NCBI GenBank assembly: GCA_947629035.1
Contig: CANRCE010000003.1
Location: forward strand, 1-61,355
DNA from: an uncultured Bacilli bacterium
GTDB taxonomy: Bacteria > Bacillota_I > Bacilli_A > RF39 > UBA660
Reading direction: 5' to 3'
DNA length: 61,355 nt
The stretch's first letter is position 1; each line of letters starts with the position of its first letter. Of the stretch, positions 6,868 to 61,355 are shown piece by piece. The translations under genes and the position numbers were made by a program. The notes under the pieces are model-generated. The model did not search any database. It was given only the letters and a program-made list of their open reading frames with translations, and was not told the origin of the DNA.

Positions 6868-7469
6868 AATGTATTTACGATAAAGTTTGTCCTAATTTAT
6901 CTGATGGGTGTTGGAGAAGTTGTTATCGATATATTAAGTTTAATAATTTAGTTGGCCAACTTAATATAACAGATGGAGCAATAACAACATTTTTAGGTGG
7001 ATATGTTCAAGGAAAGATACATACACTGAAGGAATTATTTTCACAGAATGCTAAAATAGCAATTATAACATTTCAAGATTTTTACTTATGTCAATTCTTG
7101 ATGTTTAAATATTCATTATATTTAATTAATAAGTTTTTAATGCCGATGGATAAAATGCCTATTATATTAAATATAACATTCAATGATGTTTTAGATGCGC
7201 ATTTTAATAATGGAAATAAGAATATAACAACTATTAATGAATGTGAATTATTAATATTAAGAAATTATCACACGGTTACATCCCCAACAGGAAAAAGTAT
7301 AATTGATGATTTAATTAGTAGTAGAATTAGTAAAGGTTTATTTACAATAATGTTATTTGAAAAAGATGTAGTAGATACAAATGAGGGGGTAATAAAGCAC
7401 TGTATTCAAAATTATAAGAATGATGTTATGATGTTGAATGAGTCGAATATAACAACAGAAGAGATATAG
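6864..7469 (+). CDS. hypothetical protein (201 aa); possible helicase-loading accessory, by position only
   Basis: AGGAGG RBS. Cys-rich N-terminus. Lies immediately upstream of the DnaB-like helicase. Confidence 0.5.
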   Translation: MKCIYDKVCPNLSDGCWRSCYRYIKFNNLVGQLNITDGAITTFLGGYVQGKIHTLKELFSQNAKIAIITFQDFYLCQFLMFKYSLYLINKFLMPMDKMPIILNITFNDVLDAHFNNGNKNITTINECELLILRNYHTVTSPTGKSIIDDLISSRISKGLFTIMLFEKDVVDTNEGVIKHCIQNYKNDVMMLNESNITTEEI

Positions 7470-7481
7470 GAGGATTAGACT

Positions 7482-8699
7482 ATGGAAGAGTTGCAACTAA
7501 TATATTTAATTCTACAGAAAAGAAGTCTACAACCTTTATTTGCTAATGATTTAACATCAGAATATTTCACTCATTATAAAAATGTAATAGATTTCATATT
7601 AAAGTTTAATGCTGAAAATATGGAACTACCGACATTAGAAACAGTAGCAAGTACTTTTCCTAATATAGAATGGCCTGAGGAAGAAGAGAATGCTGATTAT
7701 TTATCAAAACAAATCAAAGAAGATTATGTCTATTCTAGTATAAGGACTATATTAAATAAAAATGAAGAAACTTTAAAATCAAATAGTTTTGAAGGTTTAA
7801 GTAAAATCAAAGTAGGATTAGATGAATTAACAAAGATAAATGAAAGTCAAGACGATTCAGTATTAATAAGAACTACTCACGAATTTGATAGAAATGTAAA
7901 GTATATAACAACAGGCTTTAAATTATTAGATAAACAGATAGATGGGTTTAGAGATAAAGATGAGTTAATTACTTTAGTAGGTCGTACTAGGATGGGTAAA
8001 TCTTGGATACTATTAAAAATGTTATTAGAGAATTGGAAGGCTGGATTAAATGTAGGATTATATTCAGGGGAGATGGATACAAAGGATATAGCTGATAGAT
8101 TTGATGCCTTAAATCTAAATAGGTCTAATAAAGAAATATCCGAAGGATTATATGAAAAAGATGCTACTTATAGAAGATACAAAGAAGAACTTGCAGATTC
8201 AGATACTAAGTTTGTAATAAAGACATTTAAGAAACTAAGAAGGAAAGCAACAGTACAAGATATTGAAGCAATGATAGTTAAGCACGATTTAAAAGTAATA
8301 GGTGTTGACCAATTATCATTAATGTTAGACCAAAGATATCAAAGAGGAGATACTTTAAGACAAACTTATGATAATATTTCAATGGATTTATTTCATTTAG
8401 CGGAGAAATATAATGTAGTTATTATTTTATTAGTTCAATTAAATAGGGAAGCCGCTAAAAATGAATTTCCAACATTGGAAAACATAGCAGAGTCAGATAA
8501 TGTAGCACAAAATAGTAGCAAGGTAATAGCAATAAATAGAGATAAAAATAATGTATTAACTATTAGAGTATTAAAAAATAGATATGGTCCAACAGGTAAA
8601 GATGTGAAATATACTTGGGATATTGATTTAGGGTTATTCAATGAAGTAATAAATGAAAAAGTAGAAGTATTGGAGGGTTCTGATGACATATTTATCTAA
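7482..8699 (+). CDS. DnaB-like replicative DNA helicase
   Basis: Walker A GRTRMGKSW, Walker B-like IGVDQLSLM, and LVQLNREA, typical of the DnaB RecA-fold domain. Confidence 0.85.
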   Translation: MEELQLIYLILQKRSLQPLFANDLTSEYFTHYKNVIDFILKFNAENMELPTLETVASTFPNIEWPEEEENADYLSKQIKEDYVYSSIRTILNKNEETLKSNSFEGLSKIKVGLDELTKINESQDDSVLIRTTHEFDRNVKYITTGFKLLDKQIDGFRDKDELITLVGRTRMGKSWILLKMLLENWKAGLNVGLYSGEMDTKDIADRFDALNLNRSNKEISEGLYEKDATYRRYKEELADSDTKFVIKTFKKLRRKATVQDIEAMIVKHDLKVIGVDQLSLMLDQRYQRGDTLRQTYDNISMDLFHLAEKYNVVIILLVQLNREAAKNEFPTLENIAESDNVAQNSSKVIAINRDKNNVLTIRVLKNRYGPTGKDVKYTWDIDLGLFNEVINEKVEVLEGSDDIFI

Positions 8700-14319: not shown

Positions 14320-15375
14320 ATGAAAGTTGAAGCAGAAAAATTAAACGAATATGTAAACATAGTTGTTAATGGTGTTGGTAAAAAAGGAATGAACCCATTA
14401 AATACAGCAATAACATTGTTAAATGATGACAATAAACTATCATTAATCGCTCAAACAAGTGTAACAACTGTTAAAGTTTATACAGATATTGATGCTACAG
14501 GATTTACTAGTTGTAGTATCGAAAACACTTTGTTTACACAATTATTATCAAAGTTATCAGGAGAAATAGAATTAAGTTTATCTGAAGGTAAGTACCTACT
14601 TATAAGAGGTAAAGGTGAATATAAAATTATAGCAGTATTTGACTATAATGGAAATATAGCATTAATACCTGATGTTAAAAAATTAGAAGTTTCTGAAATG
14701 AAGAAATTAAATTTTGAAGAATTAGTTAGGTCTATAGGAGTATGTAAAAATGCTTGTCCTGAAGACTTAAATGTTCCTGTTTTATATAATATCTATTATG
14801 GAACAGAAGGAGTAGTAGCAACTAATGATTCTAAATTAATTCGTATTCCTAATAAAACAGACTTTTTAGGAAGATTAAGTGTTGCAAACTTAAGTATCAT
14901 AACTTCTGCATTAAAAGGAGATGTTTATTATAAAATAGAAGATAAACGACTAATAATGCAAGATTCAAATAATACTTTAGTAGTAATGGCATATGATGAT
15001 TCAGAAGATTATCCTGCAAAAGATGTAGGAACTGCTGAAATGGTAAAACCTTTTGAATTAGAATATGAACAAGTAATGGAAGTAATAGAAAAAGGTAAGT
15101 TATTTATTTCACCATTTGATAGAAATATAATGCTAGTATCAATTGGAAAAGAAGGAATAACTTTAGAGAGTAAAGATATAGGATTTATTGAAGAAGTTAA
15201 ATTTTCGAGTCCTACTGAAGCAGACGAATTAAAGGATTTACAAATTAATCTATTAGACCTTTATTCAATACTAACAAGTTGTGTAAATGGACCAATTAAA
15301 ATGTCTTGTACACAAGACGGACCATTATATGTTAGTCAAGGCGATTATACAGGATTAATTAGTCTATATGAATAG
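14320..15375 (+). CDS. DNA polymerase sliding clamp (beta-clamp-like) candidate
   Basis: 351 aa, close to DnaN size. Sits between the polymerase and the nuclease, and the phage encodes its own clamp loader. No strict motif exists for this family. Confidence 0.5.
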   Translation: MKVEAEKLNEYVNIVVNGVGKKGMNPLNTAITLLNDDNKLSLIAQTSVTTVKVYTDIDATGFTSCSIENTLFTQLLSKLSGEIELSLSEGKYLLIRGKGEYKIIAVFDYNGNIALIPDVKKLEVSEMKKLNFEELVRSIGVCKNACPEDLNVPVLYNIYYGTEGVVATNDSKLIRIPNKTDFLGRLSVANLSIITSALKGDVYYKIEDKRLIMQDSNNTLVVMAYDDSEDYPAKDVGTAEMVKPFELEYEQVMEVIEKGKLFISPFDRNIMLVSIGKEGITLESKDIGFIEEVKFSSPTEADELKDLQINLLDLYSILTSCVNGPIKMSCTQDGPLYVSQGDYTGLISLYE

Positions 15376-16186
15376 AGGACTTGGAGCAGTAAGTGGTTTA
15401 TTAAGTAGATTAAATACTCCAGATATATTAAATAAACTTTCTGATGCTTTAAAGGCTGAAATAATGGGTGGAGAAAATGGAGAAAGTTTACCGTCAACGT
15501 TCTTCACCCCATCCTCTATGATATGTAAAAGGCAAATGTTTTATAAGGCAAAAGGAGAATCTCCTGAACCTTCACCTTTCGACTATCAAATGACAGGGAT
15601 GGCAGAAAGTGGTACTGATAGACATAATCGATTACAAAATCATCTAAAAAATCTAACAGATTGGGAATATGTAGACGTAGCAAAGTATATAGAAGATAAT
15701 CATATTGATTTAGAGATTGTAAGCCATATTGGAAATGAATGGAAATTACGAAATCTAAAATATAATGTATCGTTTATGTTAGATGGTATTCTACGCTATA
15801 AACCAACTAACAAATATTACATAGTAGAAATTAAAACTGAAATTAGTTTTAAAAGTAATGGAAGACAAGATGTTGACCCGTTCCATAAACATCAAGGCTT
15901 AGCATATACACAACTGCTAAAGATTCCAGATGTAATATTTATATATGAAAATAGGGACGATTGTAGTTTAAAATTTTATCTTTATACTCCAACACCTGAA
16001 GAGATAGAGAAATATTTTAGACGAAAATTAACTGATGTATTATATGCTTTAGAAAAAGATGAATTACCGCCTAAAGTAACAGTTGAGGATATTAGTTTAA
16101 CTGATGTTATTAAAACTGATAAAGTTTGCAACTATTGTCCTTATAGAATGAAATGTGGAAGGGATGATAACAATGTCAAAGGCTAA
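15368..16186 (+). CDS. Cas4/RecB-like PD-(D/E)XK exonuclease with a Cys cluster
   Basis: D...IVEIKTE nuclease core. One N-terminal Cys (MICKRQ) plus C-terminal CNYCPYRMKC, the pattern typical of Fe-S Cas4-family nucleases. Confidence 0.65.
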   Translation: MNRGLGAVSGLLSRLNTPDILNKLSDALKAEIMGGENGESLPSTFFTPSSMICKRQMFYKAKGESPEPSPFDYQMTGMAESGTDRHNRLQNHLKNLTDWEYVDVAKYIEDNHIDLEIVSHIGNEWKLRNLKYNVSFMLDGILRYKPTNKYYIVEIKTEISFKSNGRQDVDPFHKHQGLAYTQLLKIPDVIFIYENRDDCSLKFYLYTPTPEEIEKYFRRKLTDVLYALEKDELPPKVTVEDISLTDVIKTDKVCNYCPYRMKCGRDDNNVKG

Positions 16187-24415: not shown

Positions 24416-24759
24416 TGGATAGATTAAGGTTTTGGTTCGAAACTGAATGCCTTTGCTATTTAAGATGCATTTGGTTATCTATTAGATATGGATATGATGA
24501 AGATAACCTTGCTGAAATGTTTAATACTAGAGTAAATATAAAACCAGAAGATAGGTTGAAACTAAAAGAAGCATTAGATAGTAGAGATATGAAAAAGTTT
24601 GACGAACTAATGGAAAAGTTAGACATAAGATATGATTTCGATGAAAAAGGATATAATATGTTTTTATATAAAGTAAAATTATATAAGGCAATTATATTTA
24701 TATTATCGATAATATTAGTATATGGTTTACTTGTATTAATATATGAAGGAGGAAAGTAG
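24412..24759 (+). CDS. hypothetical protein with a C-terminal TM helix (start uncertain)
   Basis: No clear RBS. The C-terminal IIFILSIILVYGLLVLIY is hydrophobic. Confidence 0.4.
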   Translation: MMDRLRFWFETECLCYLRCIWLSIRYGYDEDNLAEMFNTRVNIKPEDRLKLKEALDSRDMKKFDELMEKLDIRYDFDEKGYNMFLYKVKLYKAIIFILSIILVYGLLVLIYEGGK

Positions 24760-24760
24760 A

Positions 24761-25357
24761 GTGAACGATAATAACAAAGTAGTTTTAAGTAAAGAACAAT
24801 TAGATAATAATTGGGAGTATTTAAAAACATTATTAAAATCAACTAAAAGAGAAGGAATAGATGATTTAATCAAGTACATTGAATCAACAGATTTTAGGTT
24901 AAGTCCTGCTAGTGCTAGTTATCATCATTCTTATATAGGAGGTTTAGTTGTCCATACTATTGAAGTTTATAAAAATGCTGTTGAATTAAATAAAGCAATG
25001 AAATTCAAAATTAGTGATGAACAAATGATAATTGCCGCTGTATTACATGATTTATGTAAAGCAAATACATATGACACTTATAAAAGAAATGTAAAAGAAA
25101 ATGGTCAATGGAAAGAAGTTGATGCATTCACTAATAATGATAAATGGCCTATAGGTCACGCTTCAAAATCAATTATTATTGCACAAATGTTCATCAAATT
25201 AGATGATTTAGAAATAAGTATGATTTATGGACACATGGGTCCATTTGATGGAAATGAACATTTCTATACAGCATTGACTCAAAAATATCCTGAAGCAATT
25301 TTAATGCATACAGCTGATATGTTGTCAAGTAAGGATACAAGAATTTATGAAAAATAA
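24761..25357 (+). CDS. HD-domain metal-dependent phosphohydrolase
   Basis: GTG at 24761 follows GAAGGAGGAAAG. HHSYIGGLVVHT and VLHDLCK provide the H...HD motif. Confidence 0.7.
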   Translation: MNDNNKVVLSKEQLDNNWEYLKTLLKSTKREGIDDLIKYIESTDFRLSPASASYHHSYIGGLVVHTIEVYKNAVELNKAMKFKISDEQMIIAAVLHDLCKANTYDTYKRNVKENGQWKEVDAFTNNDKWPIGHASKSIIIAQMFIKLDDLEISMIYGHMGPFDGNEHFYTALTQKYPEAILMHTADMLSSKDTRIYEK

Positions 25358-25646
25358 GAAAGTAGGTATTGAGTATTATAATATAGGTAATTATTTAGTT
25401 GCTTATACTGATTATTTACCTAAAAGAAAATTACCTATTTATGTAATATGTCAAAAAGACAATGAATTTATTCATATGGGAATAGTAAAGTATTATGGTC
25501 CTTGGAGAAAATATATTTGGGATACAGACGGAATATTTGATAATATAATATTTGATTCTAAATGTCTTAGAGCAATGGCTGACTTTGTTGATTACATAAA
25601 TAAAGAATATAAAGAAGGAAGGATAGAGGTTAATAGATATGTATAA
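25347..25646 (+). CDS. hypothetical protein (99 aa)
   Basis: Overlaps both neighbours. Weak RBS. Confidence 0.45.
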   Translation: MKNKKVGIEYYNIGNYLVAYTDYLPKRKLPIYVICQKDNEFIHMGIVKYYGPWRKYIWDTDGIFDNIIFDSKCLRAMADFVDYINKEYKEGRIEVNRYV

Positions 25647-26307
25647 AGGTAAAGTATTGATAACAGGAACATCTTCAGGTATTGGTAGAGATACAGCAAT
25701 TCTATTCTGTGAAAAAGGATATGAAGTAATAGGATTCGACATACAAGAATCCGCTATTGCTTATGAAAATTATACACACTATATAGTTGATGTAGGAAAG
25801 AAAGAACAATTACCTGATATAGATGGTGTAGAATATTTAATTAATAATGCTGGAACTATAGAAGAAGATAAATCAATAGAAACAAATTTAATGGGATACA
25901 TAAATGTAGCTGAAAAATATGGTTTTAATGATAGTATTAAATCTATAGTTAATGTAGGTAGTATTAGTGGATTAGTAGGATTAGATACACCAATATATGC
26001 CGCTTCACAAGGAGGAAGAATATCTTATACTAAAAATTTAGCAATAAGAATAGCAGAAAAATATAAGATTCCAGTTAATTGTGTAGCATTCGGAGCAGTA
26101 CTTTCAGGATTAGAACCAAAGTTATATGCTCATAAAGAATTAGTCGACGCTGTCGCTAATGAAAATCTTCTTAATAAATGGATACAACCTGATGAAGCCG
26201 CTGAATGGGTTTATTTCGTCAGTGTTAAAAATAAATCGATGACAGGACAAGTTATCTTAATTGATAATGGTGAGCAAGCGAAATATAATTTCATTAAAGC
26301 ACGATAG
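25639..26307 (+). CDS. short-chain dehydrogenase/reductase-fold protein
   Basis: ITGTSSGIGR (TGxxxGxG) and LINNAG. The expected YxxxK reads Y-A-A-S-Q, so the catalytic Lys may be absent. Confidence 0.7.
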   Translation: MYKGKVLITGTSSGIGRDTAILFCEKGYEVIGFDIQESAIAYENYTHYIVDVGKKEQLPDIDGVEYLINNAGTIEEDKSIETNLMGYINVAEKYGFNDSIKSIVNVGSISGLVGLDTPIYAASQGGRISYTKNLAIRIAEKYKIPVNCVAFGAVLSGLEPKLYAHKELVDAVANENLLNKWIQPDEAAEWVYFVSVKNKSMTGQVILIDNGEQAKYNFIKAR

Positions 26308-26309
26308 GT

Positions 26310-26331
26310 TGTATTATATATTAGGAGGAGG
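26310..26331 (+). promoter_or_regulatory. TGTATTA box
   Basis: GTTGTATTATATATTAGGAGGAGG. Confidence 0.4.
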
Positions 26332-26339
26332 TGTAAAGA

Positions 26340-26831
26340 ATGAGAGTTTACCTAGCGCAATGCATGGATAATCTAGCATACTATGAGCATTTCACAAAGT
26401 TATGCAATTATTTAGAAGGTTTAGGATATTCAGTTTATCATCCTTGGAGAGACGAAGGAGTTATTTTAGAGGATAAATGTACACTTGCTGAATCATTAAG
26501 AACTTTTAATAATGATGTAAACAATATTAGAACTTGTGATGTAATGGTAGCTTGTATTGATGGTTTAGGTCCAGATAGTGGAACTTGTGTTGAGACAGGT
26601 ATTGGTTATGCATTAAATAAACCAGTTATCTTATACACAACAGAATTCAAGTATCTAAAAGAAGGAACTAATATCAATGATGTTTATCCAAAAGAATGCT
26701 TACCTGCTAACGAAAATAGCAAAGTAAGAACACAACCAATGATAAACAATATGTTAATTGGTGTAAGTAACGGAACTGTATGTCATACTTTTGAAGAAGT
26801 TGCTGAAACTATTAAAAACTTGAACTTATAA
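26340..26831 (+). CDS. nucleoside 2-deoxyribosyltransferase-family protein
   Basis: GPDSGTCVETGIGYALNKPVILY matches the DxGTxxExG...KPV core of the family. Confidence 0.65.
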   Translation: MRVYLAQCMDNLAYYEHFTKLCNYLEGLGYSVYHPWRDEGVILEDKCTLAESLRTFNNDVNNIRTCDVMVACIDGLGPDSGTCVETGIGYALNKPVILYTTEFKYLKEGTNINDVYPKECLPANENSKVRTQPMINNMLIGVSNGTVCHTFEEVAETIKNLNL

Positions 26832-26835
26832 TCGT

Positions 26836-26858
26836 TGTATTATATATTGAAGGAGGAA
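26836..26858 (+). promoter_or_regulatory. TGTATTA box
   Basis: GTTGTATTATATATTGAAGGAGGAA. Confidence 0.4.
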
Positions 26859-26862
26859 GAAT

Positions 26863-27447
26863 ATGACTAATAGTTCTAAAAAGATTAAATTTACAGATGA
26901 TAACAATAGTAATAAAAAAATTAGATGTTCTGTTGGTTTAACTATAGAGCCATACGGTTATAGACAAGGTCAAAGAGTTGCAGTATTAAATATTGATAAA
27001 CACAACGGCGAAATGACTTTTAAACAAATCGTATTAGAAATCTATAAAAAGAAAACAAATTGTATTACAATTACATTACCTGAAAATCAAGATTATGATT
27101 GTAATATAAAAGAACTAATAGAATATTTACAAAAGTTTGTTAACTATTGTAAGATTCATCTAATGCATTCTCTAAACAAAGACGGAAAAGCAGTTCATTA
27201 CGATAAAGTATTGAATACTTATTTCGAATATGTTGAAGGATTAGATGAAACAGATTCTATTGTATTATTTGTAAAAGAAGAAAAAGAATTAGAAAGCATT
27301 ATTATTGAAGCTGATAGAATTAGAACAGAAAATAAATTTAATGGAAAAATATTCATTTTATTTATGCAAGAGCCTAGTTCTGACGCTTACGTTACGATGC
27401 TTGATAAAAGTGTACACTATAAGACTCGCTATCAAAAAATTAATTAA
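26863..27447 (+). CDS. hypothetical protein (194 aa)
   Basis: GAAGGAGG RBS. No motif recognised. Confidence 0.55.
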   Translation: MTNSSKKIKFTDDNNSNKKIRCSVGLTIEPYGYRQGQRVAVLNIDKHNGEMTFKQIVLEIYKKKTNCITITLPENQDYDCNIKELIEYLQKFVNYCKIHLMHSLNKDGKAVHYDKVLNTYFEYVEGLDETDSIVLFVKEEKELESIIIEADRIRTENKFNGKIFILFMQEPSSDAYVTMLDKSVHYKTRYQKIN

Positions 27448-27523
27448 TTAATTTTCGAAAGTTAATTACTCTCGAAACCAGGAGTTAGAAATAACTCACG
27501 TTTAACCGAAGGAGGAAAAAGAA

Positions 27524-28261
27524 ATGACATTAAACGTAATATTAGCGATAGTTGAATTCATTTTCATATTTGGAATGATTCCTGTTGTAAGAAAGTTTTT
27601 CGGAAAGAGTGGGTTAGTAGGTATGATGGTAATGTGTATCCTACTAGCAAATGTACAAACTCTAAAAGTAATAGAATTAGGAACTAGTTGGTTATCAGTA
27701 GGATTAGGTAATGTAGCATTCGCCGCTATATTTACAATATCAGACTTAATCAATCATAAATATTCCGCTAAAGAAGCACGACAAGGTGTTACAATCGCAA
27801 CATTCTGTTATGTATTATTCTTTATCGCTATGCAATTAACTATAGCATTTGTTCCAGGACAATTAGACTGGATACAAGATGGTTTAAAAACAGTATATGG
27901 TACTGATGGATTATATATTTGGGTTAGTATAGGAGGTATTATAGCATTCTATATTGGTCAATTATTAAATACATTTATATTTGATTGGTTAGTTAAAAAG
28001 ATTAAAAGTCAAAGTAAGTTAGCATTATGGTTTAAGAGTGCAACATCTAGTATGGCAAACCTAATAGAAAATTTCATATTTGGATATTTAGGTTATGTAT
28101 TACTTCCATCAATATTTGTATCAAAAGTAATTATGCCATTTAGTTATGTAGTATCAACATCAATGATTGGAACAATACTTGAAGGAATTATTACAGTATT
28201 CTCTCCAATAGCATTGTTACTAGGTTCTATGAAATTCTTTACACCTAAAGATGAAAGATAA
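27524..28261 (+). CDS. yhhQ: YhhQ/DUF165-like queuosine-precursor (preQ0/preQ1) transporter candidate
   Basis: About 6-7 TM helices. FTISDLINHKYSAKEARQGV resembles the conserved YhhQ TD-x-I-N-E-x-YG...AR segment. Confidence 0.6.
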   Translation: MTLNVILAIVEFIFIFGMIPVVRKFFGKSGLVGMMVMCILLANVQTLKVIELGTSWLSVGLGNVAFAAIFTISDLINHKYSAKEARQGVTIATFCYVLFFIAMQLTIAFVPGQLDWIQDGLKTVYGTDGLYIWVSIGGIIAFYIGQLLNTFIFDWLVKKIKSQSKLALWFKSATSSMANLIENFIFGYLGYVLLPSIFVSKVIMPFSYVVSTSMIGTILEGIITVFSPIALLLGSMKFFTPKDER

Positions 28262-28276
28262 ATATAAATTAATTTA

Positions 28277-28305
28277 AAACCTGACGCTTCGTTAGGTTTT
28301 TTTTA
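28277..28305 (+). terminator. rho-independent terminator
   Basis: AAACCT ... AGGTTT stem followed by T8. Confidence 0.7.
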
Positions 28306-28323
28306 TTTTCTTTAAAAAAGGTA

Positions 28324-28352
28324 TTGACTTTTTATATAATATATTATATAAT
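28324..28352 (+). promoter_or_regulatory. sigma-A-type early promoter cassette
   Basis: GGTATTGACT, 17-nt spacer, TATAAT at 28347-28352. Confidence 0.7.
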
Positions 28353-28389
28353 ATATTTATAAATTAAATAAAAGAGGAGGAATTAATTT

Positions 28390-28722: not shown

Positions 28723-29121
28723 ATGATAAGATTCATAGTTGTAGAAGATAATTATTATCATACAAAGCATACATTTAGTAGCCGGAAGGAGTTGAAAGAC
28801 TACCTGAAGGTTCACGCTTCAGATGTCAGCAATATATATGAAATAACTAGAAAGACTGATAGATATTTAGATTATATGATGGATGAAGACGAAAAAAGAT
28901 ATATTGTTAGAATAAATAAAATGTATGATGATGAGTGGTATTGCTTAAATGTAGATAAACAATATCCAGTAAGAGTATTTGCTAAAAATAAAAAAGAAGC
29001 ATTTGATAAAGCAGTTAAAGTATTAGTTGAGCAATATGATTGTGATGCTGAATATCTAGAATTAGTAGAAATACAAGAATATCCTTATACAGAGTTAGAC
29101 GACTTGAAGATTGAAAATTAG
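28723..29121 (+). CDS. hypothetical protein (132 aa)
   Basis: GAGGAGG RBS. No motif recognised. Confidence 0.55.
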   Translation: MIRFIVVEDNYYHTKHTFSSRKELKDYLKVHASDVSNIYEITRKTDRYLDYMMDEDEKRYIVRINKMYDDEWYCLNVDKQYPVRVFAKNKKEAFDKAVKVLVEQYDCDAEYLELVEIQEYPYTELDDLKIEN

Positions 29122-29203
29122 ACGCTTCTTTTTAATGCTTGACTTTTAGTTCGACGCTTCGTTTAAATGCTTGAAAGTTAGACGCTTCGTTTCTATGCTT
29201 GAG
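29118..29203 (+). repeat. three tandem repeats of about 29-31 bp, consensus TAGACGCTTCGTTTNNATGCTTGA
   Basis: Copies at 29118-29143, 29149-29175 and 29177-29203. The first overlaps the stop codon of ORF 28723. Confidence 0.85.
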
Positions 29204-29268
29204 AATTTTAAATTTTAAAATATTCTTTCTTTCTTTTTAATAAATCTTTTAAATTCGACAATGCAATT

Positions 29269-29283
29269 TAGACGAGCTGACAT
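29269..29283 (+). repeat. 15-nt exact repeat TAGACGAGCTGACAT (copy 2)
   Basis: Identical to 2847-2861. Confidence 0.9.
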
Positions 29284-29397
29284 GTTTCTAGTGTGAGTAA
29301 TATAAATATACCTTCTAGAAATTAATCTTTAGCATTTTAGTTGTTTTAATAGAATTCTTTTAGTTTTATTCTTTCTTTCTAAAAGTCTTTTAGACAG

Positions 29398-29536
29398 GCA
29401 ACCAAATGAAGCCAACCAAAGTCAATGCCAACCTAAGGCGACACCAACCTGCCAACCATTTCCACCACCAGTGTCGACACCAGACAGGTCGCCACCAGGC
29501 ACGACACCAGGCGACCGCCACCAGACACGACACCAC
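29398..29536 (+). repeat. AC-rich array of short direct repeats: GCCAACC x5, then CG(A/C)CACCAG x5-6
   Basis: GCCAACC-type copies start at 29398, 29411, 29427, 29443 and 29451. CACCAG cores start at 29466, 29478, 29493, 29505, 29519 and 29531, spaced 12-15 bp. My hand count for 29401-29580 is about 36% C, 36% A, 17% G and 10% T. Confidence 0.85.
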
Positions 29537-29574
29537 TCTGAAATCGTCAAGGTCAAGGTGCAAAATCTCACCAC

Positions 29575-29598
29575 AAAAAAAGGAGGTCTACTCCTCCT
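29575..29598 (-). terminator. rho-independent terminator of the minus-strand gene
   Basis: On the minus strand: AGGAGG, 6-nt loop, CCTCCT, then a T-run. Overlaps the stop codon. Confidence 0.75.
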
Positions 29599-29818
29599 CA
29601 TCGAAATGAAATATAGAATTTAATAAGGTATAAGCAATATACCAATATAAGCAATGGGTTGCTAATCCGAACCAGGTAAAACCGGCGAAGCTAAATAAGA
29701 CGGTTTTTAAATCTTTTAATATTAATATTATAAAGAAAATTGCTAATATTAATTTTAAAATATTGTCCCATCTTACCTTTCTTAATTTTCTAATAAATTT
29801 TCTAATTCTTTTTTTCAT
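29588..29818 (-). CDS. small membrane protein (76 aa); the only convincing minus-strand gene
   Basis: Has its own early-type promoter, an RBS (GAAGGAAAAGG) and a terminator. Two hydrophobic helices. Confidence 0.65.
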   Translation of the reverse strand: MKKRIRKFIRKLRKVRWDNILKLILAIFFIILILKDLKTVLFSFAGFTWFGLATHCLYWYIAYTLLNSIFHFDEEE

Positions 29819-29856
29819 ATCCTTTTCCTTCTTTCTTTTATTTATTTTATATATAT

Positions 29857-29885
29857 ATTATATAATATTATAATAAAAATGTCAA
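29857..29885 (-). promoter_or_regulatory. sigma-A-type early promoter cassette (minus strand)
   Basis: The reverse complement reads AAAAAAGGTATTGACA, 17-nt spacer, TATAAT. Confidence 0.7.
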
Positions 29886-29984
29886 TACCTTTTTTAAAAA
29901 ATTTTTAATTTTTTTTAAATTAATTTTCATCCTATTTCCTTATTTATATATAATATTATAAAAATTGACGGTTTTTTGAGGGTC

Positions 29985-34274: not shown

Positions 34275-34383
34275 GACATTATATAAAGGTGACTGAAAAA
34301 GATTATATATGAATTGACATTATTTTTTATATAAAGATTTCTTATATATAAAGGCGACATTATTTTTTATATATAAAGGTGAT
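34275..34383. repeat. three direct repeats at about 40-bp period (GACATTATTTTTTATATATAAAGGYGA)
   Basis: GACATTAT starts at 34275, 34316 and 34356. Confidence 0.75.
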
Positions 34384-34423
34384 ATAGAGTAAAGTAGCAA
34401 GAAAGAAATATTTAAAATAATTT

Positions 34424-34488
34424 CTCCATACCAATCCGTCTACCTCCAATACATCCTCAATAAATCTCCAACCAATCTCCAGCCAAAT
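34424..34488 (+). other. C-rich, G-poor tract with repeated (T/C)CTCCA
   Basis: TCTCCA or CCTCCA at 34423, 34443, 34465 and 34476. I counted only about 2-3 G in 65 nt. Confidence 0.7.
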
Positions 34489-34805
34489 AGTGTCTTTTAT
34501 GTTAAGTTATCATTTATATTAATAGACAATAAAGGCGGAAGGAAATAAATATAATAATGGTAATATTATTAATGTATATAATTAATTAGCATATAAAGCT
34601 AACTATATTAACTATATGTATATGTATATATTAATAAATAAATAATAATTATTATTTTAGCTACCATCTAATATACCACCTCCTCCCTTAAAGCCTTGCT
34701 AATAGCCATTACTCGCCGCTTAGTATGGTGCAAAAGGTACGGTTATAGCGCGAACTGGCGTGTCGTTGGGGGACCATTAATTTAACTTTTTGCCATAAAA
34801 TCCAA

Positions 34806-35208
34806 AAATGCGAACAAGCCGGAGAAAACTCCGATTCGGTGTTAACGCGCCCCAATGTTCACTCCAAATCAAAAATACCGGGGGTGGAATTCTCTGGTTA
34901 AAGCGTCGATATAAGTCAAAACAGGCTTGCTTATTGCAAACCGTAAATGCGAAACATCGGAGAAATCCTTGCGAAAGTGTTACTGCGCCCCAGTGTTCGA
35001 TTAAAAAGTAACGGGTCTAAAACTGGGGCAGATGTCAATCCATAATATTTTAGATAATGATTTTTAGTAAAATCGACTAAAAATATCGTGAATTTTAGAG
35101 AAAAATTACTTTGAAAACAGGAATTCTTACTTTGAAAACAGGAATTGGCGGTGAAAAAGATACAAGGAAAACTGGAGAAGAGTGTTATCTCGCCCCAGTG
35201 TTCACTCC
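34806..35208 (+). repeat. three imperfect direct repeats (about 40-60 nt) with the GC-rich core CGCCCCA(A/G)TGTTC
   Basis: Copy A at 34806-34865, copy B at 34945-35002, copy C at 35172-35208. Cores at 34848, 34986 and 35191. Local GC is far above the window background. Confidence 0.8.
35106..35146 (+). repeat. tandem 20-mer TTACTTTGAAAACAGGAATT x2 (21-nt period)
   Basis: Copies at 35106-35125 and 35127-35146. An inverted copy lies at 35259-35276. Confidence 0.9.
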
Positions 35209-35257
35209 GCTGACGAAATCTAATAATTATGGTTATTTTATCTAATATTATGAACTA

Positions 35258-50421: not shown

Positions 50422-50797
50422 GGGGATGTTTAGGTTTCGACTGCAGGTTGTTAGTATGAGTAGCAAGTACTAGGCCGCTAGTATAAAGAGCAAACAAAAT
50501 AAACGCTAAAACTTTTATTTCTAGATTAGCAAATTTATTTGCACCTAAAGCTTCTTACGCTTTAGTATAATCTATGCTCATATAGTAGGTCCAGCATTCG
50601 TCGACTATATGAGTATCGTAAAAGAATGCAACCCTCTCGGTTGAAAGTTTTAAGAGTAAATTAAACTTTATATGTTAGTGTAGTGTTGTTTAGTTACTAG
50701 ACTGACCTCTAATCCTCCTTAACTAAAATAAACTTGTAGGATAACTTGTATTTTAGCAGTTTGTAGGACACGAGTTCGATTCTCGTCATCTCCACCA
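50422..50797 (+). ncRNA. ssrA: tmRNA (SsrA)
   Basis: 5-prime GGGGATGTTTAGGTTTCGACTGCAGG, 3-prime GGACACGAGTTCGATTCTCGTCATCTCCACCA. The acceptor GGGGATG/CATCTCC has G3-U. An internal tag frame begins after AAAUAAAC. Confidence 0.85.
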
Positions 50798-50801
50798 ATA
50801 T

Positions 50802-50875
50802 GCAGGTTTAGTTCAATGGTAGAATGATGGTCTCCAAAACCACTGATAAATGTTCAAATCATTTAACCTGTGCCA
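50802..50875 (+). tRNA. trnW: tRNA-Trp (anticodon CCA) with encoded CCA end
   Basis: Acceptor GCAGGTT/AACCTGT. D arm TAGTTCAATGGTAGAA. Anticodon loop CTCCAAA at 50832-50838. T loop TTCAAAT. One A-C mismatch in the anticodon stem. Confidence 0.75.
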
Positions 50876-59524: not shown

Positions 59525-61355
59525 ATGGATGGAGAAATTACTCTACCTATTGAAGTCATTGATAATGCCACTAAACAATTAGATAACATTATTAATGAAA
59601 TGAATAAATTCAAAAACACTGCTGAAAAAAGTAAAAAAGTAACTTTTATGGACAAACTTTCAGATGGTGTTGACAGTGCCCTATTAAAATTATCGAAAGG
59701 CGAAAAATTATTAAATAGCTTCGGTCTTAAAACGACTGGAGCTTTTAGTAATTTCGCTTCAGGTAATTATGTTGAAGCCACAACAGCCTTGATGGATATG
59801 TCTGATGAAGCTACTAGATTACAAGGTAGACTAGCATTAGCATTAGACCAAGGTAGTAGTGTAAATGCTTTTAAAGATGAAATAAGAAAAGCCGCTGACG
59901 AAGCTCGTACTAGTTTTGATGCTATAGCAGAAGGTGTTGCAGGTATAGGTTTAGCTTCTGGTGATATGTTTAATGATAAAGAATTATTAGACTTTACTAA
60001 ATCCTTATCTATGTTATATAAGATAGGCGGAGCAACAACAACTGAAACAAAAGCCGCTATGGTTCAAATTAGACAAGCATTAGCAAAAGGTAAATTACAA
60101 GGTGATGAGTTTAAATCATTATCTTCATTACCAGGATTCTTAGATTTAATGGCAAAAGAACTAGGTGTAGCAAAAGGCGAAGTTAAAGAATTAGCAAGTG
60201 AAGGAAAAATTACTGCTGAAGTATTTAAAAATGCTATGTTACATGGGGCTACAGAATTACAAAGTAAGTTAGACACTATTCCAAAAACATTTGGTGATAG
60301 AGTCAATGAAGTAAATAATGCTTTAAAACAATTTCAAAATAAAATAGGTTTATTATTAAATAAATTAGCAAATTCTAAGCCAGTTATTATATTTTTTGAA
60401 GCCTTAAAGAAGACATTTGATAAATTAGTAAATGCCGCTAGAAGGTTAACAAGATTTTTAGATAAATTAATACCTAAAGATATTGCAGACGAGTTTGATG
60501 ATATATCAGACAAGGCTGATAAGTTAGCTAATATATTCGCTACAGCCGTTTTAGTAGTATTAGGCTTAGTTATAGCCAAAGTCGCTTTACTTGGTGCACA
60601 ATTTATCATAATGGGTATACAAGGCTTTATAGGAACTTTTTCAATATTATGGCCACTATATTTACTTATTGCTGTTCTATTGTTAATAGGATATGCAACA
60701 GGTGAATTAGGAAATACATTCCAAGAAGTATTTGGTTTCATTGGTGCCTTTGTAGGAGTTACAATAGCATTAATATGGAACTTATTCTTAGCTTTATTAG
60801 ATTTAATTTTAGGTGTCGTTAATACCTTAGGAAGAGCATGGATGATGTTTGCAAACTTCTTTGGTAACATATTTAATGACCCAATCGCATCTATTATTTA
60901 TTTATTCCGAGATTTAGCAAATACCGTTTTAGGTATATTAAAAGCAATAGCAAGTGCTATTGATAAGTTGTTTGGCTCTAATTTAGCAGGTGCTGTTCAA
61001 GGATGGATGGATGGTGTTGATAATTTAGCTGATAAAGCCGCAAATAAATGGGGTAATGGTTCATACGACGCAGATGAATGGGAAGACATAAAAAGTGAAT
61101 CATTGGGACTATCAAGGATGGATTATGTTGATGCTGGTGTTACTGGTTATAACATTGGTGCTGGTATTGGTAAAGGATTAGACAGTGTATTAGATGGTAG
61201 TTTATTTAGTGATATAAGTGATTTAGGAGATAGTACTGATATGTTTGGTACTGACTTAAATGATTATGATGCAAGTACAGGTACAGGTTCGCTATCAACT
61301 AAATTAGATGACGATACTGTAGATGAATTAAAAGCATTTGCTGAAATTCAATACA
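59525..61355 (+). CDS. tail tape measure protein (partial; 3-prime end outside the window)
   Basis: GAAGGAGGTG RBS. N-terminal tape-measure domain (QIRQALAKGKLQGDEFKSLSSLPGFLDLMAKELGVAKGEVKELASEGKITAEVFKNAM). Hydrophobic central segment. Open to the end of the window. Confidence 0.85.
   Translation, partial: MDGEITLPIEVIDNATKQLDNIINEMNKFKNTAEKSKKVTFMDKLSDGVDSALLKLSKGEKLLNSFGLKTTGAFSNFASGNYVEATTALMDMSDEATRLQGRLALALDQGSSVNAFKDEIRKAADEARTSFDAIAEGVAGIGLASGDMFNDKELLDFTKSLSMLYKIGGATTTETKAAMVQIRQALAKGKLQGDEFKSLSSLPGFLDLMAKELGVAKGEVKELASEGKITAEVFKNAMLHGATELQSKLDTIPKTFGDRVNEVNNALKQFQNKIGLLLNKLANSKPVIIFFEALKKTFDKLVNAARRLTRFLDKLIPKDIADEFDDISDKADKLANIFATAVLVVLGLVIAKVALLGAQFIIMGIQGFIGTFSILWPLYLLIAVLLLIGYATGELGNTFQEVFGFIGAFVGVTIALIWNLFLALLDLILGVVNTLGRAWMMFANFFGNIFNDPIASIIYLFRDLANTVLGILKAIASAIDKLFGSNLAGAVQGWMDGVDNLADKAANKWGNGSYDADEWEDIKSESLGLSRMDYVDAGVTGYNIGAGIGKGLDSVLDGSLFSDISDLGDSTDMFGTDLNDYDASTGTGSLSTKLDDDTVDELKAFAEIQY

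Follow-up and report, generated by a model that had tools for sequence, protein, structure and literature searches.

Conserved position and composition but replaced sequence in a C-rich, T-poor repeat tract between two convergent early transcription units of an uncultivated tailed phage

Introduction

A 61,355-nt contig (CANRCE010000003.1 of assembly GCA_947629035.1, analyzed at its full length and termed the window here) belongs to an uncultivated tailed phage and contains, at positions 29397 to 29536 of the + strand, an intergenic tract of ~140 nt composed of short direct repeats. The closest described look-alikes of this tract are the arrays of the T7 group of phages. In T7, bases 175 to 345 contain eight copies of CCTAAAG spaced by 13 bp (or 25 to 26 bp), with a composition of 40% A, 32% C, 11% G and 18% T, located directly after the 160-bp terminal repeat and ahead of the host-polymerase promoters A1 to A3. 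To our knowledge, a function has not been established for these arrays. As in T7, the tract is strand asymmetric and A+C rich (74% versus 72% A+C), contains ~8 to 12 copies of a 7-mer in one orientation with ~13-bp spacing over ~150 bp, is non-coding and lies directly upstream of strong host-polymerase early promoters; in both groups, the motif varies among related phages. The T7 array, however, adjoins a direct terminal repeat at one physical end of the genome, whereas the tract is known from contig sequence and lies within long contigs. Gene content and terminase type are also unrelated to those of T7, and the G+C content of the tract stands out far more (59% in a 28% genome).

Rho-utilisation (rut) sites, such as lambda tR1 and those of Bacillus subtilis, represent a second relevant class. 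The mapped Rut sites of B. subtilis are ~100 nt on average, G-poor with a C>G bias, unstructured and without a strict consensus, with ~80% of the sites antisense to genes and an enrichment in prophages (PMC12350095). The tract shares with rut sites an untranslated extent of at least ~100 nt, an excess of C over G, a definition by composition without a consensus, a location where transcription would go antisense into a gene and a following hairpin that is a possible pause site. It differs in being built of overt repeats, in being U-poor and in having a G content that is not under the genome average, and the versions in related phages have approximately equal amounts of C and G.

Three further systems have features in common with this locus. 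Iteron and centromere arrays (plasmid oriV iterons, R1 parC, omega-repressor heptads and tubC) are likewise intergenic sets of multiple direct repeats in one orientation whose specificity differs among relatives; in contrast to these, the tract has short units and irregular spacing, has no recognised cognate Rep or Par gene and is flanked by a protein that is conserved while the motif changes. Motif-array RNAs (CsrB/RsmZ, anti-small RNA sponges and ToxI repeats) resemble the locus in being non-coding units running from promoter to terminator with many short, single-stranded, unevenly spaced motifs. CsrB/RsmZ-type RNAs keep one binding motif across relatives, such as GGA, while the motifs found here differ in each lineage, and the locus has no adjacent partner gene and no match in Rfam; ToxI units are long exact repeats of ~36 nt. 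Type I toxin-antitoxin loci (txpA/RatA, bsrG/SR4 and par of pAD1) also combine a gene for a small hydrophobic protein with a convergent non-coding unit and a shared terminator on a phage. Here, in contrast, only the hairpin overlaps, and the protein (64 to 76 aa with two hydrophobic stretches) is longer than typical type I toxins. The statement in the original prediction for this DNA that no described element matches was, therefore, correct for Rfam and for GenBank phages and plasmids but overlooked the T7-group arrays.

Results

Composition and repeat structure of the tract

The tract had been described as a strand-asymmetric, AC-rich array of ~10 short repeats beginning at 29398, with ~10% T in surroundings of one-third T. 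Counting upheld this description, with a start at 29397 and ~11 short direct repeats in one orientation. Positions 29398 to 29536 contain 33.8% A, 40.3% C, 18.0% G and 7.9% T (74% A+C), as compared to 10.2% C and 30.8% T for the whole window. When the 61 kb were examined in 140-nt intervals, the tract had the highest A+C, C and G+C contents and the lowest T content, with a G+C fraction of 0.586 (0.280 ± 0.050 window-wide; maximum elsewhere, 0.486) and a C fraction of 0.40 (0.10 ± 0.03 window-wide).

Two repeat families are present. The first half (29397 to 29458) contains five copies of (G/A)(G/C)CAACC at spacings of 8 to 16 nt, with CAACC at 29399, 29413, 29429, 29445 and 29453 (intervals of 14, 16, 16 and 8 nt). 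The number of copies was as claimed, but the exact form GCCAACC accounts for only three of the five. The second family, C(A/G)(A/C)CACCA, occurs seven times, at 29439, 29463, 29475, 29490, 29502, 29516 and 29528 (intervals of 24, 12, 15, 12, 14 and 12 nt), and five of these copies strictly match CG(A/C)CACCA(G/C), for which five to six copies had been proposed. Six copies of C(A/G)(A/C)CACCA(G/C), spaced by 12 to 15 nt with a 26-nt super-period, fill the second half (29463 to 29536), which also holds the local palindromes GTGTCGACAC and GGTCGCC...GGCGACC. Spacing is mostly 12 to 16 nt, as noted earlier, but ranges overall from 8 to 24 nt. Tandem Repeats Finder detected periods of 16, 12 and 26 within the tract. 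The redundancy of 5- to 8-mers was not reached by any of 2,000 dinucleotide-preserving shuffles of the tract itself, indicating that the repetition exceeds what composition explains. Within the window, these motifs are essentially limited to the tract. The T-free motifs occupy two thirds of its length and the spacers contain 23% T; the T-poverty is due mainly to the motifs.

A 67-aa open reading frame in the tract had been dismissed as an artefact of the repeats, and this was borne out by the relatives described below. Six-frame translation detected no open frame shared by the five lineages, none being maintained across the relatives, and the L140 tract has stops in all six; a coding region was, therefore, rejected, the frames of the window tract being open because it is T-poor. 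No match to the tract was found in Rfam (gathering threshold for the whole window; E ≤ 1 over 29.0 to 36.1 kb), no tRNA was found there by ARAGORN, and no consistent fold of either the tract or the leader preceding it was obtained. Relative to shuffled sequences, fold z scores were −2.2 for the window tract (one local hairpin), +3.25 for L122, +0.2 for L130 and −1.2 for L140. A strongly stable fold was seen in none of the four, and the L122 tract folds significantly less well than its own shuffles. The tract is neither a gene nor a recognised RNA, nor does it appear to be stably folded.

A homologous module in related phages

Relatives were reached through two neighbouring proteins, the Vut_1-family transporter and the 132-aa protein encoded ahead of the tract, whose homologues led to contigs in ENA and Logan. 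Protein-based queries of IMG/VR, JGI metagenomes and GTDB genomes yielded none, BLAST searches with the module gave no match among GenBank phages and plasmids and an exact 24-mer of the tract had no match in IMG/VR. A degenerate three-unit pattern gave >119 matches in IMG/VR, but those read were exact tandem repeats, read as Gly/Pro-type coding linkers, and were irrelevant; a pattern derived from the upstream repeats (array A, below) returned only chance or coding matches. Two contigs (L001 and L002) match the window almost exactly over the whole module and were uninformative. A homologous intergenic module was detected in four other lineages, namely L122 to L124, L130, L140 to L147 and, in a divergent form, L126.

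The module begins immediately after the last + strand gene with two to six repeats of the type ...CTTCnTTTnnATGCT. In L122 (7515 to 7605), L130 (4828 to 4935) and L140 (3385 to 3590), these repeats form tandem hairpin-plus-U intrinsic terminators. The window counterpart, array A (29111 to 29202), consists of three direct repeats of 28 to 32 nt (TTAGACGCTTCnTTTnnATGCTTGA; Tandem Repeats Finder period 28, 3.1 copies) that resemble the 5′ half of the terminator following the Vut_1 gene (28274 to 28302). The relatives build terminators from similar sequence at this place, whereas no hairpin forms in array A (fold z, +1.7), so that the window repeats look like decayed terminators.

The second element comprises a TTTAG(A/G)CG box and a rightward sigma-70-like promoter, with TAGACA-16-TATAAT in L140 (11/12), GCGACA-17-TATAAT in L130 and CTGACA-18-TATAAA in the window. 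The window version (29267 to 29306, + strand) is promoter-like and aimed at the tract, with the box TTTAGACG at 29267 to 29274, a −35 element at 29277 to 29282, an 18-nt spacer and a −10 element at 29301 to 29306; this −10 element is imperfect relative to the TATAAT of L122, L130 and L140. A T-rich leader with TTTTAGT and TTTAGAC boxes follows (29312 to 29396 in the window), and such boxes are also present in the leaders of the relatives. The tract itself, GC-rich, T-poor and 140 to 190 nt long, is the fourth element. It is followed by a semi-conserved tail with an A-run (29537 to 29579, CTCTGAAATCGTCAAGG..., similar in L130 and L140) and a hairpin located 45 nt downstream of the tract. The hairpin with its T-run (29599 to 29580, − strand) is a predicted intrinsic terminator of the convergent gene, whose stop codon is in the loop. 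On the + strand, a U-tract after this shared hairpin is absent in the window and L130 but present in L122 and L140, in which the hairpin looks bidirectional. The final element is the convergent gene, encoding a small protein of 64 to 76 aa with hydrophobic stretches.

Two candidate motifs in this region were discarded: TTAGACG as a dispersed promoter box, as outside the module it mostly represents Leu-Asp-Glu codons, and a CU-rich anti-ribosome-binding-site box in the leader, which is present in the window only and absent from the relatives.

In the divergent lineage, L126 (71% Vut_1 identity; 7443 to 7906), there is neither a convergent small gene nor the promoter spacing, and the counterpart of the tract is a G/A-rich run of GAAGG/AAGGTT leading directly to the next + strand early promoter. 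The possibility that the L126 tract was inverted and fed by an inverted promoter was rejected, as the promoter at the end of the L126 contig is on the + strand.

Homologues of the 132-aa protein precede the module in L122, L126 and L140, and in L130 one gene (AAA_22) intervenes; five aligned sequences of this protein are 81% to 100% identical. Early gene order is shuffled among the lineages (window 28.3 to 40.1 kb versus L130, L132, L122 and L140), as seen for homologues of the 99-aa, 79-aa, 132-aa and AAA_22 proteins, as recombination between copies of the promoter cassette described below could produce. The internal order of the module is preserved despite this shuffling. These data indicated that the tract is real, statistically solid and evolutionarily maintained and that it is part of a conserved module without a database match.

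Composition is kept while sequence is replaced

Conservation in related phages had been suggested as a check on the array. The tract, its place and its composition are kept in four lineages, but the repeat motif is rewritten in each. The dominant motifs are CAACC and CACCAG in the window, AAAGC(G) in L122, AAAG(G/C) followed by CGCCACCAG in L130 and CCGAAG, CCTAGC and GAAGTC in L140; only the 3′ end of the L130 tract is recognisably alignable with the window. Motifs were replaced between the window and L140 while the flanking 132-aa protein remained 83% identical. All four tracts, by contrast, have 55% to 60% G+C in DNA of 27% to 30% G+C, 8% to 16% T and a C content 2.3- to 4-fold over background. 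The C/G ratio is 2.2 in the window, 1.5 in L140 and ~1 in L122 and L130, as compared to a background ratio of 0.57.

Variability was compared among near-identical phages whose 132-aa proteins are identical. Variable columns amounted to 5.9% in the tract, together with an indel of a 6-nt GAAGTC unit, and to 7.5% in array A, 2.9% in the tail and hairpin, 1.4% in the promoter and leader (the least variable segment) and 0 to 2% in the adjacent genes. The tract is several-fold more variable than the flanking genes in these phages. As judged from these comparisons, mutations are concentrated in the tract, yet its composition, length, strand and position are still held against the A+T pressure of the genome. 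Replacement of the motif in each lineage with retention of position and composition argues against a fixed sequence-specific site (iteron, centromere, pac or Chi); sequence-specific readings are weakened and a composition-based, transcribed RNA element appears to be favoured.

Transcriptional context

The tract is located where two early transcription units converge. An early promoter (TTGACT-17-TATAAT, 28324 to 28352, + strand), inside the copy of an ~85-nt cassette at 28282 to 28366, precedes genes for a 109-aa and a 132-aa protein, and its transcript heads toward the tract. The latter gene (28723 to 29121, + strand) encodes an acidic protein and is the last + strand gene before the module, operon genes ending at 29121. 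From the opposite side, a consensus promoter (TTGACA-17-TATAAT, 12/12; 29857 to 29885, − strand), located in the sole inverted copy of the cassette (29836 to 29930), drives the convergent early gene (29588 to 29818, − strand). Its 76-aa product has a basic N terminus, two hydrophobic stretches (by eye) and an acidic C terminus, and is fast evolving, with 49% identity to the 69-aa protein of L140; other homologues of the window protein were not found. No intrinsic + strand terminator was detected in the window between 29121 and this gene. The convergent intergenic location and the description of the 76-aa gene as the only one on the minus strand both proved correct: all other convincing genes are on the + strand, and the minus-strand open reading frames near 59 to 61 kb are antisense within a + strand gene, which begins at 59526 and is cut off by the window end.

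The ~85-nt cassette (an A-rich upstream part, GGTATTGACA, 17 nt and TATAAT) occurs in 11 copies, of which the 10 on the + strand start at 2336, 10531, 28282, 30194, 30609, 31560, 31925, 32843, 35725 and 43717. Its promoter part has weak BLAST matches to non-coding DNA of Streptococcus thermophilus phages. Eight contigs of relatives stop 90 to 160 nt after the Vut_1 gene, inside the repeated cassette; these contig ends were, therefore, regarded as assembly breaks and rejected as genome ends.

Discussion

A proposed composition-based element

These comparisons suggest that the tract most likely works via its composition, probably as a transcription-stopping RNA, rather than by offering a specific binding site. 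The conserved properties are composition, apparent single-strandedness, strand and a feeding promoter. This combination indicates a role at the level of the + strand RNA, recognised by its composition with no need for a set sequence, and Rho is the best-known factor acting in this manner. Our leading, and still tentative, proposal is that the tract is a putative Rho-utilisation-like element insulating the convergent 76-aa gene. The tract would then be the fast-evolving core of a conserved, non-coding, transcribed buffer between the two converging early units, and its + strand RNA would provide a C-rich, U-poor and largely single-stranded landing site of the rut type. Rho loading on this RNA would halt + strand transcription near the shared hairpin, preventing antisense transcription into the gene for the 76-aa putative membrane protein and collision with its consensus promoter. 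The + strand RNA of the window would probably be mainly read-through from the 109-aa/132-aa operon, which seems to have lost the intrinsic terminator present in the relatives, with an addition from the weakened promoter of the module itself. A factor reading composition would leave the sequence free to turn over by slippage while the composition was held.

The window is the lineage that best suits this proposal, which had been among those raised originally. Over 120 to 160 nt, the tract contains 38% to 41% C and 18% G (C/G, 2.1 to 2.2), forming a C>G bubble of the kind associated with rut sites, and none of the other eight C-rich, C>G blocks found on the + strand of the 61 kb is as long. In three lineages, a sigma-70-like promoter is directed into the tract; its counterpart in the window is weaker. 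The window tract is the most C-skewed of the four lineages and the one without an upstream intrinsic + strand terminator, and no U-tract follows its hairpin. The relatives fit only in part, and several observations weigh against a Rho-dependent function. With C/G ratios of 1.0 to 1.5 in the relatives, and C approximately equal to G in L122 and L130, the C>G bubble is not family-wide. In the window, the G content (18%) is not below the genome average, some local structure is present (z, −2.2) and the tract is depleted in U, whereas mapped Rut sites are pyrimidine-rich overall. The T-poverty resides in the motifs, with 23% T in the spacers, a pattern that a motif-specific binder would also give. 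The correlation between absence of an intrinsic terminator and the most C-rich tract rests on four lineages. Lastly, L122 and L140 keep both the tract and a good promoter despite upstream intrinsic terminators and a bidirectional-looking hairpin; retention of the tract and promoter where terminators already exist suggests an independent role of the tract RNA in addition to termination.

If the tract does work via composition, it would constitute a clear natural case of free sequence turnover with base composition, position and strand held, and would offer a ready model of how a factor insulates convergent early genes in phages of low-GC hosts. Should it prove to be a decoy RNA or an array associated with genome ends, it would instead provide a handle on a new class of phage RNA or on the long-unexplained T7-type arrays. 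The module and the 11-copy cassette account for the breaks at this locus in assemblies of this phage group, and they delimit the early region in an uncharacterised gut phage lineage. The tract appears related to described kinds of element, rut-like tracts and T7-type repeat arrays, with a function that is putative.

Alternative explanations

A role for the RNA itself is the alternative that survives best, although we consider it doubtful. The tract could be the body of a phage non-coding RNA of ~270 to 300 nt, running from its own promoter to the shared hairpin, whose single-stranded motifs bind, sequester or are cut by a lineage-specific partner, in the manner of CsrB/RsmZ, anti-small RNA sponges or ToxI-type RNA decoys. 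Candidates for such a partner include an RNA-binding or defence protein of the host, a ribonuclease and a small RNA, and an arms race with it would drive motif turnover. The promoter and leader are conserved and are the least variable parts, a + strand U-tract follows the hairpin in L122 and L140, the tracts appear largely unstructured and the uneven, out-of-helical-phase spacing is that of motif-array RNAs. The concentration of T-poverty in the motifs, with spacers closer to background, and the retention of the tract where termination is already supplied are also in keeping with an RNA function, and fast evolution would fit diversifying selection. These points are offset by the defective −10 element (TATAAA) of the window promoter, by the absence of an identified partner, an Rfam family, complementarity to the convergent mRNA and long exact units like those of ToxI, and by the finding that the motif differs even between phages with an 83% identical neighbouring protein. 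A more specific form of this idea, to which we attach a lower probability still, is that the module encodes a fast-evolving early phage RNA, non-coding and of a class not described before, in which a U-poor, single-stranded motif array would serve as a decoy or sponge. Its target could be Rho of the host, a ribonuclease active in defence or some other protein that binds RNA, and an arms race with this target would lead to a motif rewritten in each lineage with promoter, leader, length, composition and terminator kept.

The original prediction had placed a protein-binding array (centromere, iteron or pac) first among the possibilities, and the data disfavour it. A DNA array bound by a phage protein as origin iterons, a partition centromere or a regulatory array, with specificity co-evolving with the repeats, would account for the ~11 T-free 7- to 9-mers in one orientation, for two further repeat sets in the intergenic region (array A and the TTTTAGT/TTTAGAC boxes) and for a very AT-rich stretch nearby (11% to 17% G+C at 29700 to 29925), and the lineage-specific motifs resemble the specificity switching of iterons and centromeres. 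The spacings (8, 12, 12, 12, 14, 14, 15, 16, 16 and 24) are, however, irregular and out of helical phase, and the units fall into two families that are shorter than typical iterons. Searches of the genes at 23.5 to 40.1 kb with Pfam and PHROGs found no Rep, ParA/ParB/ParR, TubZ/TubR or DNA-binding domain among those that these libraries recognise. The adjacent 132-aa protein is acidic and is 83% identical between phages with unrelated motifs, the replication genes are 5 to 25 kb distant and GC skew shows no switch at this locus except for the tract itself. Binding of this kind is, hence, considered unlikely.

About equally improbable is that the tract has no function and is a slippage-prone minisatellite in a tolerant intergenic gap. 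Hypervariability between lineages would be expected of such a sequence, as would the 6-nt unit indel and the several-fold excess of substitutions over flanking genes among near-identical phages, and L126 has a divergent G/A-rich version with no convergent gene. Neutral sequence should, however, decay to A+T, while four lineages independently hold 55% to 60% G+C and 8% to 16% T over 140 to 190 nt; moreover, position, orientation and bounding sequences are conserved, and the L122 tract avoids secondary structure beyond chance.

Least likely among these explanations is an end-proximal array, like those beside T7-group terminal repeats, that marks a genome end or concatemer junction and functions in packaging, end processing or DNA entry. 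A genome-end or origin element had also been proposed originally and has a real analogue in the T7 CCTAAAG array, which lies after the terminal repeat and before host-polymerase promoters; T3 and gh-1 carry 7-mers of their own at their ends, the present tract is also just upstream of a cluster of consensus early promoters and both groups combine lineage-specific motifs with a kept architecture. This phage is, however, not T7-like, having a tail sheath, a family A polymerase, a clamp loader and RecA (the genes were not screened for a phage RNA polymerase). Its large terminase is of the Terminase_3 type, and the nearest named relatives (~31% identical) belong to temperate phages of Gram-positive bacteria, which we take to be mostly headful packagers. 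Furthermore, the module is internal in several 40- to 60-kb contigs, nearby contig ends are explained by the repeated promoter cassette and no second copy of the module flanks is present in the window.

The remaining candidates were rejected: type I toxin-antitoxin or antisense pairing with the convergent mRNA, as duplex energies were no better than those of shuffles (z, +0.6, +1.9 and −0.5) and only the shared hairpin overlaps; a Chi cluster, as the three copies of CCACCAG, the complement of seven of the eight bases of Escherichia coli Chi, are absent from L122 and L140 and the relatives of this phage are phages of Gram-positive bacteria; G-quadruplex or i-motif structures, as no run of three G or three C occurs in 29397 to 29536; and mimicry of tRNA 3′ ends by CACCA, which is found in the window only. 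The non-B DNA earlier proposed for the complementary strand is not supported, since that strand has no run of three G and its GGTTGG motif is not conserved in the relatives.

The phage genome and additional features

The low-GC phage genome (about 27% to 28% G+C) has no DNA-level similarity to GenBank phages by BLAST. Recognised genes include those for a large terminase, SNF2 and DnaB-type helicases, a family A DNA polymerase, RecA, a clamp loader, a ligase, a processivity factor, a Cas4-like nuclease, a major head protein and a contractile-tail sheath. Polymerase and terminase are ~31% to 33% identical to proteins of Clostridium, Streptococcus and Bacillus phages, and the replication and packaging proteins generally are nearest to those of phages of Gram-positive bacteria. 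One related contig carries the label pig metagenome.

A second C-rich, very G-poor repeat run is present at 34420 to 34490, with ~5 copies of CTCCA(A) at a period of ~11 (33% C and 5% G over 34415 to 34492). It sits in a 1.6-kb gene-less stretch after two to three direct repeats (GACATTAT...TATAAAGG) at ~34280 to 34390. The second GC-rich island of the window (34650 to 35230; 42% to 48% G+C) contains three copies of GTGTTAnnnCGCCCCA(A/G)TGTTCAC, at 34839, 34977 and 35182, and a perfect 21-nt tandem duplication at 35106 to 35146; it has no Rfam match at E ≤ 1 and looks like three paralogous structured RNA elements.

A second recurring upstream motif, (A)CTGTATTAtAtAATG, is followed directly by AAGGAGG and a start codon at 13 sites in the window (3165, 9488, 10839, 11579, 14022, 19902, 21172, 24726, 26835, 35477, 37371, 38625 and 44322) and may represent a middle or late promoter class.

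A tmRNA and a tRNA-Trp were detected by ARAGORN and Rfam, away from the tract; the phage-borne tmRNA (50422 to 50875) has an unusual predicted tag, AKTFISRLANLFAPKASYALV, and the tRNA-Trp gene comes directly after it. A Cas4-domain or PD-(D/E)XK-type exonuclease (15368 to 16186; PHROG annotation, CRISPR/Cas system associated) is encoded beside the polymerase processivity factor (14320 to 15375). Lastly, genes for an HD-domain protein, a short-chain dehydrogenase, a nucleoside 2-deoxyribosyltransferase and the Vut_1/YhhQ-like queuosine-precursor transporter form a cluster (24743 to 28261), kept in all of the relatives, whose content may point to modification of nucleotides or DNA bases of the deazaguanine type.

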